Assembly: GCA_035388025.1 (NCBI GenBank) | Contig: DAOOPA010000001.1 | Span: 1-48,620, forward strand | DNA from: a bacterium | Lineage (GTDB): Bacteria; Patescibacteriota; Patescibacteriia; UBA2196; GWA2-42-15 | DNA length: 48,620 bases | Direction of reading: 5' to 3' | Shown here: positions 8,768 through 26,691 of the stretch, one piece after another | How the letters are laid out: each line of letters begins with the position of its first letter | Numbering within the stretch: the first letter of the stretch is position 1 | Program-made: the position numbers and the translations under genes | Notes under the pieces: generated by a model | Told to the model about the DNA's origin: nothing | The model's database searches: none | What the model saw: only the letters and a program-made list of their open reading frames with translations

Positions 8768-8826
8768 ATAATTAAAATCAAAATTATGGTAGCCTGTTTC
8801 GCGGGATGAATTTATTAAAAATTTCT

Positions 8827-8902
8827 GGTGGGCATGCTGGGACTTGAACCCAGGACCCCCACTTTATAAGAGTGGTGCTCTAACCAGCTGAGCTACATGC
8901 CC
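8827..8902 (-). tRNA. tRNA-Ile (anticodon UAU), CCA encoded
   Basis: GGGCATGTAGCTCAGCTGGTTAGAGC, then anticodon arm CCACT-CTTATAA-AGTGG (anticodon TAT), then T arm CTGGGTTCAAGTCCCAG and ACCA. Confidence 0.85.
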
Positions 8903-23094: not shown

Positions 23095-24525
23095 ATGAAA
23101 AAAGAAGGATTAAAATTTTTTATTTTTGTTTCAGCGCTTGCTTTAATATTGACAGCGGCTGTTTTGGTTTTGACGAAAGATGGGGAACAAGGAAGTCGTT
23201 TGTGGCGTTATGTGCCAGAAGGGACGACAGTATTTTTGGAGCTTGATCTAACGGAGAGTAAATTAAAAAATTATTTAATAGAAAACGAGAAGGCAAAAGA
23301 GGCGTTGGAAAATTTTTTAATGGATCAAGGGCTACCTGCGGAAATTTGGGATGCTGGTGTCCAGATTCAAAGAGTGGCTTGGTTTGTGGCGCCGACCGGG
23401 GAAGCCAAAAAAGCAGAGGGTTGGGTGATTCAAGGCAAAAATGATATCGGCCAGTTGAGTGCTTTTCTAAAAAATTTTTATTTTAAATTTATTGACGATA
23501 AGGTGGCGGTGATTGCTTCTTCTAAAGATGTTTTGGCACAAGCCATGAAAGATTCAAATTTTAATAATTTGGAGGTGCAAATGACTAACCAGTCACAAGA
23601 TAATTTTGCTTATGGTTTTTGGAAGGCTGATGATTTTTTTAAAGAACCAGAATGGAATGATATTTTTAAGGAAATTTTTGACCAAGATGAAGGGGGATTG
23701 TTTTATGGGCAAGCAAGAGTAGACAATGATGGAAGGGTGGTTTTTTCTCTTAAGACGCCATTGAGGCTAAGGGACAAGGTGACAGACTCATTGATAGAAG
23801 CAGGGGGGCAAAAAAAATATTTTAGCAAGGCAGTGACATTTAATGTGGGGGGGTTAAAAAATTTTTGGCAACAGATATTGAGAGTCAGCGGAGAGGATGG
23901 GGCGTCATTTGAGGCAGTAGAGAATTATTTAAATGATAAATATAAAATAGAGGCAAAGGAGCTGTATACAATTTTTGAACTACCATTTAATTTAGTGGTT
24001 CGGCCCAGGGAAAAAATTGAAAGCATAGATAATTTGTGGCAATGGAACAAGAATGATTACGCCGTGGTAACGGAAATAGATGAGGGTGCGAAGAGAGAGT
24101 CGGTGGTGCGTAACTGGGAGACCTTGTTGATTAATTATTTAGCTTTTAAATTTCCAGAGCGGCGAGAAAAAATATTGCCAGACAAAACTCGGGGAGAAGA
24201 AATTGTGGTGGCTCCGGAAAAATTTAAATTAGAGAGCGAGGCTGTGCTGGGTGGAGAAATCAGATCGGTCAAGGTAGGCGATTTTGAGTTGGGTTATGCC
24301 TTGGCTGATAAGATGCTGGTTATTTTTAATTCGGCTGACTTGGCAAAAAAAATTATAACAGAGAGCGCTGAGCAAAAAGACAATTCAAATGAAAAGATAA
24401 AAAGCCAGGGGGTTGGGGATACGGAAATTTTGCCGCTCTCTTACTTCCTCTTCGCTGATTGGTTTGGCTGGACAGTGAGAGCTGATAATAATTATTTGGC
24501 GATTGATGGTTTTTTGGCAGATTAG
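23095..24525 (+). CDS. hypothetical protein with N-terminal membrane anchor (476 aa)
   Basis: An N-terminal hydrophobic helix (FFIFVSALALILTAAVLVL). I recognise no catalytic motif. Confidence 0.6.
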   Translation: MKKEGLKFFIFVSALALILTAAVLVLTKDGEQGSRLWRYVPEGTTVFLELDLTESKLKNYLIENEKAKEALENFLMDQGLPAEIWDAGVQIQRVAWFVAPTGEAKKAEGWVIQGKNDIGQLSAFLKNFYFKFIDDKVAVIASSKDVLAQAMKDSNFNNLEVQMTNQSQDNFAYGFWKADDFFKEPEWNDIFKEIFDQDEGGLFYGQARVDNDGRVVFSLKTPLRLRDKVTDSLIEAGGQKKYFSKAVTFNVGGLKNFWQQILRVSGEDGASFEAVENYLNDKYKIEAKELYTIFELPFNLVVRPREKIESIDNLWQWNKNDYAVVTEIDEGAKRESVVRNWETLLINYLAFKFPERREKILPDKTRGEEIVVAPEKFKLESEAVLGGEIRSVKVGDFELGYALADKMLVIFNSADLAKKIITESAEQKDNSNEKIKSQGVGDTEILPLSYFLFADWFGWTVRADNNYLAIDGFLAD

Positions 24526-24664
24526 AAGAGTATAAGCGATGGTGGAGTAGAAAAAATTTATGGTGATACTATCAAGGGAATGGGAAAGCCGAAAATTGTG
24601 GATAAGTTGATTGAGAAAATAAAAATTAATAAAAAATGTTGGAAAAATTTAGGATTCGTCAGCG

Positions 24665-24693
24665 TTGACGGAAGATTTAAAACATGCTATACT
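24665..24693 (+). promoter_or_regulatory. near-consensus promoter TTGACG-N17-TATACT
   Basis: TTGACG at 24665-24670, a 17-nt spacer, and TATACT at 24688-24693. Confidence 0.6.
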
Positions 24694-24699
24694 TATAGT

Positions 24700-25100
24700 G
24701 TAAGTGTTTTTTGGACATTTATTTCACGGCAAAGAATAATTGTTCCAAAATAAAATAAAAAGCAAAAACAAAATTTGGAATAGTTATTCTTTACTGTTCG
24801 TAAAAGGTTCCTGGAGCCACGAGAACCTGTACGACAAAAATAAAACAAAAATAAAAAGGTAACTTTTTATCCCATAAGGATAGAGGGATTACCACAAGAA
24901 CGGTAAAGAATAAATAGCTTTTTGACAAATCGGCCCAAAAAGCACTTCATCCCTAATCAGGAAAATCTTGGCCGCGCACCACCATTTGTATTTTTGAGAA
25001 AGAGAATATAGATGCCGGTGCGCTCCAAGTCCCACTAGGGATTTGGGGGCGTGTAACCTCATTTATCAATTTTTAATTGGGGGCTTACCGCCCCCTTTTT
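24700..25100 (+). ncRNA. candidate structured orphan RNA of about 400 nt, unknown class
   Basis: No ORF of 60 aa or more. A 19-bp stem (24731-24749 with 24774-24792) has two G-U pairs that are valid only on the plus strand. Further helices are GCGCACC/GGTGCGC (24974-24980 with 25017-25023) and CAAGTCCC/GGGATTTG. The terminator GGGGGC-TTACC-GCCCCC plus T-run is at 25079-25100. Confidence 0.5.
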
Positions 25101-25105
25101 GTTTC

Positions 25106-25134
25106 TTGAAAAAAGATAGATAAAGGTTTAGGAT
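25106..25134 (+). promoter_or_regulatory. promoter of cca (TTGAAA-N17-TAGGAT), with the ATG 6 nt after the -10
   Basis: TTGAAA at 25106-25111 and TAGGAT at 25129-25134. The ATG is at 25141 and no SD is present. Confidence 0.45.
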
Positions 25135-25140
25135 GATAAT

Positions 25141-26691
25141 ATGAAACAGGAAAACTTGAAAAAAATAATAAGACAATTAAAATGTGACGGTTTTTTGTCG
25201 TGGCAAGAGAAGGTGGAAAAAAATGGTGGAGAGATTTTTTTGGTGGGTGGAGCGGTAAGAGATGCATTACTTGGAAACAAGAAAGTCAAAGATTATGATT
25301 TTGTGGTGAGGGGAGTGGAAATTGAGAAGTTGGAAAAAATATTGGCGAGCTTGGGGCGAGTGGAGTTGGTGGGAAAAAATTTCGGTGTTTATAAATTTAT
25401 GCCCACTGGCAAAAAAATGAAAATTGCTTTTGACATTGCTTTGCCGCGGACAGAGATTTCTTTGGCAACCGGCGGTTACAAAGATTTTAAAATCAGCTAT
25501 GACCATCGTTTGAAAATAGAAGATGATTTGGGCCGGCGCGATTTCACGATTAACGCGTTGGCTTGGAATTTGAAAAGAGAAGAATTAATTGATGAGTTTG
25601 GAGGGGGCAAAGATTTGAAGCAAGGATTCATTCGGACAGTCGGCAACGCCCAGGAAAGATTTCAAGAAGATTATTCTCGGATGTTTCGGGGTATTCGTTT
25701 TGCTTGCCAGCTGGATTTCAGGATAGAGGATAAGACTTGGACGGCAATTAAAAAAATGATTAAAAAGATAAATGAAGAGCGAGACGGAGAAAGAATCGTG
25801 CCCTACGAGGTTGTAGGCGAGGAAATTTTAAAAGCGTTTGTTTATAATCCCACAGAGGCATTTGATTTGATGGATAAATCGGGGGTGATAAAAGAGACCA
25901 TGCCGGAACTTTTGGAAATGAAAAACTGTCCACAGCCAAAAAATTGGCATAGCGAAGGAGATGTGTGGACGCATACCAGATTATGTTTAAAAAACTTAAA
26001 TAGTGAGGCGTTTCGAGAAAGGTTTAGTCAAGAAATTATATTTGGGGAACAAGACAAAAGACAAAAGGCAAAAGGCAAAAGTAAGGAAGGATTGTATGGG
26101 GCGGAATTGGTGATGGCAGTATTATTTCACGATGTCGGAAAGCCATTAACAATAACAACGCCGGAAAAGGATGGCGCGGACAGAATCAGATTTAGCGGGC
26201 ATGATGAGCTGGGGGCGAAGATGGCAGAAGAGATTTTTAAGAAATTGAAATTATCAGCAGGGCCAGATTTTGATTTTGAGCCGGAGCGGGCGAGTTGGCT
26301 CATACGCAAACACCTTTTGTTTGGAGTAGAGAGAATAAAGGAAATGAAAGTCTCAACCATAGAAAAATATTTTTTTAGTGAGAAATATAGCGGAGAAGAC
26401 CTACTAAAATTGGGGTTTGTTGATAGCTTGTCTTCGATTCGTGATAGCGGGGGGCCATTTTTAGAGAGTTTTGATTTGATGGTGGAAAGAATTAATGAAT
26501 TGAAAAAGTTGGGCAAAGGTAGACAATTACCAAAACCGTTTTTGGATGGGAATGAAGTAATGAAGATTTTAAAGATAAAACCTGGGAAAAAGGTGGGTAA
26601 GATTTTGGAAGAGTTGAGGGAAAAGCAGTTGGCGGGGAAGATTAGAAATAAAAAAGAGGCGGAGAGGGAAATTAGGAAGGTAGGCAGGTAG
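25141..26691 (+). CDS. cca: CCA-adding tRNA nucleotidyltransferase (class II, with HD domain)
   Basis: LVGGAVRDALLG..DYDF, RRDFTINALA and HDVGKP. It carries a low-complexity insert at 26052-26087. Confidence 0.75.
   Translation: MKQENLKKIIRQLKCDGFLSWQEKVEKNGGEIFLVGGAVRDALLGNKKVKDYDFVVRGVEIEKLEKILASLGRVELVGKNFGVYKFMPTGKKMKIAFDIALPRTEISLATGGYKDFKISYDHRLKIEDDLGRRDFTINALAWNLKREELIDEFGGGKDLKQGFIRTVGNAQERFQEDYSRMFRGIRFACQLDFRIEDKTWTAIKKMIKKINEERDGERIVPYEVVGEEILKAFVYNPTEAFDLMDKSGVIKETMPELLEMKNCPQPKNWHSEGDVWTHTRLCLKNLNSEAFRERFSQEIIFGEQDKRQKAKGKSKEGLYGAELVMAVLFHDVGKPLTITTPEKDGADRIRFSGHDELGAKMAEEIFKKLKLSAGPDFDFEPERASWLIRKHLLFGVERIKEMKVSTIEKYFFSEKYSGEDLLKLGFVDSLSSIRDSGGPFLESFDLMVERINELKKLGKGRQLPKPFLDGNEVMKILKIKPGKKVGKILEELREKQLAGKIRNKKEAEREIRKVGR

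Follow-up and report, generated by a model that had tools for sequence, protein, structure and literature searches.

What is encoded between cca and the gene that precedes it in the genome of a member of the Candidatus Kuenenbacteria? The stretch of DNA considered here (the window: 48,620 nucleotides of contig DAOOPA010000001.1) contains a gap of 615 nt (24526-25140) that separates an open reading frame (ORF 23095..24525; 476 aa, without a Pfam match) from cca (25141..26691), whose product carries the Pfam PolyA_pol and HD domains of a CCA-adding enzyme. A first-pass annotation, made from the sequence alone, had placed in this gap a highly structured orphan RNA of about 400 nt, bounded by a consensus promoter and a terminator and transcribed independently of cca. 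The analysis that followed makes it very probable that this is a real, independent, structured RNA gene and that it represents a new family. As to what the RNA does, the evidence leans somewhat toward a housekeeping RNA that acts in trans and is coupled to DnaA.

The absence of a credible ORF from the gap is borne out: on the strand of the RNA the longest ATG-initiated ORF encodes 8 aa, and no ORF is found to be common to 13 homologues. A small protein gene at the locus, lacking any conserved ORF, was accordingly rejected. The promoter that had been singled out (TTGACG-N17-TATACT) is among the best in the window. It is kept in 10 of 10 Kuenenbacteria orthologues and in nearly all of 40 homologues from the same class, in the form TTGAC-N17-TATAMT, mostly preceded by TG. 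The terminator (25079-25100), which a terminator scan also finds, consists of a hairpin of six GC pairs followed by a T run, and both elements are retained in all 10 of the Kuenenbacteria copies. The transcript would begin about 7 nt after the -10 element and end within the U tract. Positions 24695-25105 of the + strand fold with a minimum free energy of -141.2 kcal/mol, where dinucleotide shuffles reach -86.0 +/- 5.3 (z = -10.4). For the - strand z is -5.2, and the invariant U.G pair of helix P2 (described below), together with many further G.U pairs, is compatible with the + strand only.

Distribution and fold of the RNA

How widely is this RNA kept? A DNA search locates the region in 9 of 9 other Candidatus Kuenenbacteria genomes sampled, always at the same site, after the gene of a fast-evolving membrane protein and mostly before cca. 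Nucleotide identity to the closest four genomes is 86-91% for the RNA, 72-74% for cca and 67-73% for the upstream gene. Three more distant genomes present, by eye, the same order of elements; in genome G042 the counterpart of UCUUUAC/GUAAAGA is UUCACAC/GUGUGAG. The family also extends more widely in the Patescibacteria: a covariance model of the core (R1, from 13 sequences) has a match in at least 42 of 151 sampled genomes of the class, and a second model (R2, from 40 sequences) in at least 10 of 150 genomes sampled from the phylum's other classes, in each case one per genome. (A point of method: 19 candidates per genome were scored, and the R1 and R2 genome counts are lower bounds for that reason.) For the window the scores are 177 bits (R1) and 154 bits (R2), values that involve some circularity, the window being one of the seed sequences; independent homologues, which are 350-520 nt long, score 44-100 bits and co-vary. 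The source genome has a single match to these models, on the + strand. The features by which members of the family are recognized are found in the window: the core fold (P2 with its invariant ACU/GGU, P2a, the A-rich linker into GGU, P2b and P3), an own promoter with an upstream DnaA box, an intrinsic terminator and a single copy.

A degenerate-pattern scan of 185,579 species genomes, not to be taken as a census, returned 26 stretches, of which 14 are true members. Several public records of metagenome-assembled genomes titled 'uncultured Gammaproteobacteria bacterium' (L070, L071, L073, L090) match this RNA strongly, at 86-122 bits; the titles look mislabelled, and these seem to be the same loci as those of Patescibacteria relatives sampled earlier.

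Is the fold conserved along with the sequence? In the 40-sequence alignment 91.8% of cells are standard pairs, versus 42-52% when the partners are slid by 1-3 columns. Compensatory changes are seen in 35 of 40 core pairs, and none of 500 shuffles does as well. Fitting the alignment to the covariance model favors the structure, but the variety of pair types per position (up to five) cannot be explained by alignment fitting alone. The helices co-vary, then, and most of those that had been read from the single sequence survive comparison with 10 orthologues: the proportion of paired cells is 87% for the 19-bp stem, 100% for GGTTC/GAACC and for GCGCACC/GGTGCGC, 92% for GGTAA/TTACC, 97% for TATCC/GGATA, 90% for CAAGTCCC/GGGATTTG and 78% for the inner terminator helix. 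The exception is TCGTA/TACGA: with just 55-63% of cells paired it is not conserved, and its place is taken, in RNAalifold and in the curated model, by the long-range helix P2.

What emerges is a conserved core (Table 1) in which P2 closes a three-way junction with the hairpins P2a and P2b and an invariant A-rich strand, and in which the neighboring hairpin P3 pairs through its loop with that of P2a. P2 has 98% of its cells paired in the Kuenenbacteria and 96% in the 40 sequences, with compensatory changes in 10 of 12 pairs; its central C-G and U.G pairs are invariant in 40 of 40. The A-rich linker retains the pattern AAAA-AA---AAAA-GG in at least 90% of the 40 sequences and is the most conserved unpaired stretch. 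Outside the core, conservation takes other forms: the sequence of P5 is not conserved beyond the Kuenenbacteria, a long hairpin at its position being present throughout the homologues, and the extension of P6 co-varies (AAGUCCC/GGGAUUU becomes AGUUCCC/GGGUACU) yet competes with the closing pairs of P5.

The loop of P2a bears the CGA/CCGA that pairs with the P3 loop, and in homologues a YCGG motif in the P3 loop is the partner. Complementarity of at least 4 Watson-Crick bp between the two loops is found in 28 of 40 sequences (null mean 10-13, maximum 20), and of 5 bp or more in 17 (null mean 3-5, null maximum 10), the null being generated by swapping loops between sequences or by shuffling them. 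Over a dozen different pairs occur in all, including UGCCGA/UCGGCA, UCCGGC/GCCGGA, UGCUGAC/GUCAGCA, GUUGGU/ACCAAC, UUUCGA/UCGAAA and CUAG/CUAG.

Does this kiss take place within one molecule or between two? Loop covariation is compatible with both and cannot say which. The RNA might accordingly self-assemble in the manner of ROOL, GOLLD and OLE, with P2a and P3 loops pairing between molecules: the loop-loop complementarity co-varies, palindromic loop pairs (CUAG/CUAG, GGCC/GGCC, CCGG cores) could pair equally in trans, and the size and ornate fold resemble those of ROOL, GOLLD and OLE. Covariation does not separate intramolecular from intermolecular pairing, however; the P2a and P3 loops are close to each other in the secondary structure, which favors an intramolecular contact, and there is no Rfam match to ROOL, GOLLD, OLE or raiA. 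Self-assembly is, on balance, an unlikely function.

The A-rich strand brings up an alternative that is about equally doubtful, namely that the RNA regulates by base pairing, or serves as a sponge whose A-rich tracts titrate an RNA-binding protein. Long invariant A-rich single strands, a strong promoter and one copy per genome would suit such a function. However, conservation sits in the structured junction and not in a seed-like loop, motif searches of the source genome provide no Hfq or CsrA candidates, and there is no enrichment of GGA motifs (7 counted, about 5 expected); an Hfq or CsrA sponge was rejected on the last two grounds.

A second kind of competition for pairing partners is seen at the 5' side of the core. 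The basal 5 bp of P1 and the helix P2 use the same UCUUU. More generally, the five to nine bases before the ACU of P2 have two possible partners, the 5' strand of P1 and the 3' strand of P2, which share one word: AAAGAAUAA in the window, and GUGAGAU in G042, where the shared strand is AUUUCAC and both copies read GUGAGAU. Among 53 homologues, 19 have a 5' helix of at least 8 bp abutting the ACU of P2 (null mean 5-8, null maximum 14), a statistic that is inflated by related sequences. With this moderate support, the shared strand may represent a folding intermediate or a true two-state junction.

Table 1. Positions of the RNA gene, its promoter, its helices and the upstream box in the window
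Feature	Positions	Strand	Description
DnaA-box-like TGTGGATAA	24597..24605	+	Reverse complement of consensus TTATCCACA; 60 nt upstream of -35
Promoter	24665..24693	+	-35 TTGACG 24665-24670, 17-nt spacer, TG-extended -10 TGCTATACT 24685-24693; consensus scan 10/12
RNA	24700..25100	+	~400 nt; fold z, no ORF, identity, covariance-model match on + strand only
P1	24731..24792	+	19-bp hairpin, 24731-24749 with 24774-24792; A-rich loop
P2, 5' strand	24788..24799	+	UCUUUACUGUUC; pairs with 24898-24909
P2a	24805..24828	+	Hairpin AGGUUC-CUGGAGCCACGA-GAACCU; 6/6 pairs with compensatory changes, 40 sequences
A-rich linker	24834..24857	+	Single-stranded ACAAAAAUAAAACAAAAAUAAAAA, leading into GGU of P2b; best conserved stretch of the RNA family
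P2b	24858..24893	+	Hairpin GGUAA/UUACC plus UUUUUAUCC/GGAUAGAGG; 88-89% of cells paired, 11/14 pairs compensatory, 40 sequences
P2, 3' strand	24898..24909	+	GAACGGUAAAGA; AAAGAAUAA after GGU repeats the 5' strand of P1
P3	24917..24943	+	Hairpin GCUUUUUG-ACAAAUCGGCC-CAAAAAGC; 95% of cells paired, 8/8 pairs compensatory
P4	24950..24962	+	Small hairpin UCC-CUAAUCA-GGA; 90% of cells paired in Kuenenbacteria, little variation
P5	24967..25029	+	Long irregular hairpin CUUGG/CCAAG, GCGCACC/GGUGCGC, CAUUUGUAUU/AAUAUAGAUG; 93% of cells paired, 8/18 pairs compensatory in Kuenenbacteria
P6	25030..25041	+	Hairpin UCCC-ACUA-GGGA; 95% of cells paired; longer version of the first-pass annotation, 25026-25045
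Terminator module	25045..25100	+	Outer helix GGGGGCG-GUAA 25045-25056 with UUACCGCCCCC 25085-25095; inner hairpin 25079-25095; U tract 25096-25100

The 3' end and the neighboring genes

The 3' end contains two copies of GGGGGC that share one GCCCCC, an arrangement that had been put forward as a possible switch. The duplication is real and is kept across the class; the switch does not stand. Whichever copy pairs, a GC stem comes to lie directly before the U tract; neither pairing is an antiterminator, and there is no terminator/antiterminator choice to be made. In the outer helix, for which the inner hairpin gives up its loop, 7 of 11 pairs show compensatory changes, and covariation favors this longer 3' helix.

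Which genes accompany the RNA? In most Kuenenbacteria cca lies downstream, and the RNA is seen with cca in the Kuenenbacteria only; a functional link between the two was rejected for that reason. In two Kuenenbacteria members (G006 and G007) a dksA-like gene is downstream instead of cca, and dksA-lspA is also downstream in G010. In most homologues from outside the Kuenenbacteria, the RNA is succeeded on its own strand by a gene for a DksA/TraR zinc-finger protein of 115-135 aa and then by lspA; the gene before it, in most cases, encodes about 430 aa and has no Pfam match. In the window the RNA does not lie directly upstream of dksA-lspA, cca being what follows it; with dksA still downstream in G006 and G007, the dksA position is a frequent trait of the family rather than a defining one. 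The dksA-lspA pair of the source genome is on another contig (C7), 87 nt behind another gene and without the RNA in front: the RNA and dksA-lspA are separated in the source lineage.

Two of the neighbors deserve brief description. The gene upstream of the RNA (23095-24525 in the window, with equivalents at L032, L039, L043 and L048) encodes an N-terminally anchored protein of about 430-480 aa, again without a Pfam match; the position of this membrane protein is kept across the class, and amino acid identity within the Kuenenbacteria is 23-62%. On contig C7 (5841-8221) dksA-lspA follows a gene that encodes 481 aa and is glycogen-synthase-like by sequence, and the 87-nt gap holds only a promoter.

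That cca has a promoter of its own downstream of the terminator is upheld: TTGAAA at 25106, a 17-nt spacer and TAGGAT ending at 25134, 7 nt before the ATG (25141), are conserved in the genus. This spacing would put the transcription start at the A of the ATG, and cca is probably translated from a leaderless mRNA. Independence of the RNA is supported in three ways: 1) promoter and terminator are both conserved; 2) cca has its own promoter; 3) the RNA stays while the downstream gene differs (cca or dksA-lspA), which means that it is kept whatever follows.

These observations bear on the proposal that the RNA is a cis-acting leader, a riboswitch-like element or attenuator that controls its downstream gene (ancestrally dksA-lspA, here cca) through termination or read-through. 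In most lineages the RNA is indeed on the same strand and directly upstream of dksA-lspA, its 3' terminator has two alternative 5' strands, P1 and P2 compete for one strand, and a compact junction with a kissing loop is aptamer-like. A test for a riboswitch or attenuator, calling for mutually exclusive terminator and antiterminator and a fixed downstream gene, nevertheless turned up neither. The downstream genes have their own promoters, the start of cca falling on its ATG; the dksA-lspA of the source genome does without such an element; and 350-520 nt far exceeds the size of known aptamers. A leader function must be considered improbable.

Known RNA families and the DnaA box

Could this be a known RNA after all? 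Among the 4227 families of Rfam 15, the only ones that the window matches at gathering thresholds are 5S rRNA and tRNAs, none at the RNA locus. A permissive scan (E < 10) of 24450-25200 has a best E of 0.52, and 10 diverse homologues have no match over the RNA. The covariance models of OLE, ROOL, GOLLD, raiA and HEARO match neither the RNA of the window nor those 10 homologues. ARAGORN finds no tmRNA in the window, and a tmRNA or tRNA-like module in the gap was rejected. The source genome (945 kb in 82 contigs, 88% complete) encodes its RNase P RNA on contig C36 (114.7 bits) and its tmRNA on contig C16 (73.3 bits), which disposes of either identity for the RNA of the gap. Thus the statement that it matches neither RNase P RNA, tmRNA nor signal recognition particle (SRP) RNA, originally based on comparison by eye, agrees with the systematic search.

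Two universal RNAs nonetheless go undetected, and the RNA might be a highly diverged true homologue of one of them, 6S RNA or SRP RNA, since the canonical form of neither is detected in the source genome or its class. SRP RNA was considered first. The models RF00169 and RF01854 have no match in the source genome nor in 41 genomes of the class, and a fuzzy search of the RNA for the SRP domain-IV motif found nothing. The proteins are equally elusive: the Ffh M domain (PF02978) is found in 0 of 26 genomes; the SRP54-type GTPase (PF00448; Ffh, FtsY) is absent from the source genome and has only weak, P-loop-level matches in 151 genomes of the phylum; the motif DTAGR does not occur in the six-frame translation of the source genome. 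Two SRP subunits have been reported to be absent in many bacteria of the candidate phyla radiation (CPR; PMC8080830), so that loss of SRP is already known. With the proteins undetectable and the domain-IV motif missing, SRP RNA was dropped.

Canonical 6S RNA (RF00013) is not detected in the window, the source genome or 151 genomes of the class. Of the 151 genomes in the phylum sample, 20 have it, every one from another class, and none of the 20 carries the RNA described here. The consensus fold of the latter is branched and 405-520 nt long, a three-way junction with at least five further hairpins in place of the 6S rod of about 160-200 nt (closing stem, large two-stranded central bubble, terminal stem); it does not match the 6S model and has twice the length of 6S RNA. 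The canonical 6S loci of other Patescibacteria are in a different gene context and are without DnaA boxes. (The 6S genes of other classes at L098-L101, in genomes G301, G215, G189 and G216, score 58-73 bits and are just downstream of the gene for an M50-like (HExxH) membrane protease.) Taken together, these findings make a diverged 6S or SRP RNA a shade less probable even than a cis-acting leader.

The upstream flank of the gene contributes a different sort of evidence. A sequence resembling a DnaA box precedes the promoter in all Kuenenbacteria copies that reach that far upstream. In 22 of 40 homologues of the class the exact TGTGGATAA is found, with its orientation unchanged and at a distance of 49-110 nt before the -35 element; most of the other loci have boxes with one mismatch, and some lineages have two to four copies. 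The 945-kb genome contains 24 exact copies on both strands (about 11 being expected from its composition), and an estimate from composition puts the chance of an exact box at this site near 0.002 per locus. In four genomes that are closed or nearly so, 95-170 kb separate dnaA from the RNA gene, which argues that the box is associated with the promoter and not with a dnaA-linked origin. Such an arrangement suggests that the level of the RNA may follow the state of DnaA. That the RNA marks or serves an origin of replication, for example as an origin transcript or primer RNA beside DnaA boxes, is most improbable in spite of the conserved box (several in some lineages) directly upstream: the locus in the window has one box only, set at fixed orientation and distance to the promoter in the manner of a transcription-factor site, and the distance to dnaA led to rejection of an origin at this locus.

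Two further occurrences of the box may be recorded. A second exact TGTGGATAA in the source genome, on contig C32 (about 8820-8870), directly precedes a near-consensus promoter, TTGACA-N17-TATACT with TG. At L012 (about 1620-1720; the order-level homologue in G010) the strands of a hairpin in the 3' domain of the RNA are UGUGGAUAAG and CUUAUCCAC, which puts a DnaA-box sequence inside the transcript.

A proposed role in trans, and comparison with known systems

If the RNA is not one of the above, what might it do? Single-copy versions in many Patescibacteria genomes point to what is probably an undescribed housekeeping RNA; no description of it was found in the literature on 6S, SRP or structured RNAs in CPR bacteria and Patescibacteria. 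It is proposed that the RNA would act in trans: a stable housekeeping RNA, made in abundance, that binds protein. The comparison is with 6S RNA, RNase P RNA or the orphan ornate RNAs, and the partner would be a protein or another RNA. The argument proceeds from its strong promoter, its own terminator, the single copy, the compact junction with a tertiary contact and the invariant single strand. The core would be the functional surface, the variable 5' and 3' hairpins would supply stability, and synthesis of the RNA would respond to the state of DnaA, the initiator of replication, by way of the conserved upstream box.

A more specific suggestion can be offered, tentatively. DksA/TraR proteins bind RNA polymerase. 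A DksA/TraR neighbor in many lineages, the lack of overlap between genomes of the phylum sample with this RNA (10) and with canonical 6S RNA (20), along with a class that has the RNA but no detectable 6S, and the lack of an RNA gene before dksA-lspA in three genomes with 6S together point weakly to the transcription machinery. Of the specific roles that can be imagined, regulation of RNA polymerase in place of 6S RNA is the likeliest, although it is still a doubtful one. One can picture, as a speculation of comparable standing, that RNase P RNA and tmRNA are joined in the Patescibacteria by a third large housekeeping RNA. DnaA would set its level, and in lineages without a canonical 6S it would have assumed the part of 6S RNA in the global regulation of RNA polymerase, working with the DksA-like factor whose gene is usually its neighbor.

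Several considerations weigh against the proposed role in trans and its extension to RNA polymerase: 1) The ends and abundance of the RNA are predicted from the sequence. 2) Binding of DnaA to TGTGGATAA is predicted from the consensus. 3) The fold is not a 6S-like rod with a central bubble, and the RNA is too long by a factor of two. 4) In the source genome the contact between P2a and P3 is only 3 bp, CGA/UCG. 5) Little weight can be given to the distribution complementary to that of 6S RNA: the 6S model lacks sensitivity, with matches in just 5 of 14 control genomes; both sets are small, so that an overlap of only about 1.3 genomes would be expected; and the lineages are not independent.

Why should such an RNA matter? 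The Patescibacteria make up a large share of bacterial diversity; their genomes measure about 1 Mb, and they cannot be cultivated on their own. In a genome of this kind a single-copy RNA of 400 nt under one of the best promoters almost certainly has a central task. Large and widely conserved new bacterial RNAs are rare, and OLE, ROOL, GOLLD and raiA each started new lines of research. What is new here is the arrangement before cca in the Kuenenbacteria, the core model with its invariant ACU/GGU and A-rich linker, the co-varying kissing loops of P2a and P3, the competition of P1 and P2 for a shared strand, and the distribution complementary to that of canonical 6S RNA. The last of these provides a concrete functional hypothesis, and the core model with its kissing loop is a starting point for structure probing and cryo-electron microscopy.

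How does the RNA compare with systems that are understood? The purine and lysine riboswitch aptamers likewise have a helical junction closed by one helix and a loop-loop kiss that co-varies. Here, in contrast, the kiss joins a hairpin of the junction to one outside it, the RNA is three to five times larger and has no antiterminator, and it is not tied to one downstream gene. OLE (RF01071), ROOL, GOLLD and raiA motif RNA also invite comparison: they too are stand-alone RNAs of several hundred nucleotides with many co-varying helices and loop-loop contact, restricted to certain lineages. The present RNA resembles none of them in sequence or structure, and differs from them in being confined to the Patescibacteria, at a syntenic housekeeping site and in one copy, and in having a DnaA box and an A-rich junction strand. 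With 6S RNA (RF00013) it shares the character of a single-copy, strongly promoted, non-coding housekeeping RNA, and two further points connect it with 6S RNA: it is found only where canonical 6S is undetected, and it is often beside a gene for the RNA-polymerase-binding DksA/TraR. At about 400 nt (versus about 185) and with a branched fold devoid of rod or central bubble, it is otherwise unlike 6S RNA, as it is in its gene context.

Finally, DnaA-regulated promoters are known, among them those of dnaA and nrdAB in E. coli and of dnaA and sda in B. subtilis. The locus described here resembles them in having a consensus box in fixed orientation near a promoter of the sigma-70 type, away from the origin. 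It differs in that the predicted box lies 49-110 nt upstream of the -35 element, clear of the promoter, and in that the product is a non-coding RNA: the conserved box offers a testable link from the control of replication to a non-coding RNA.

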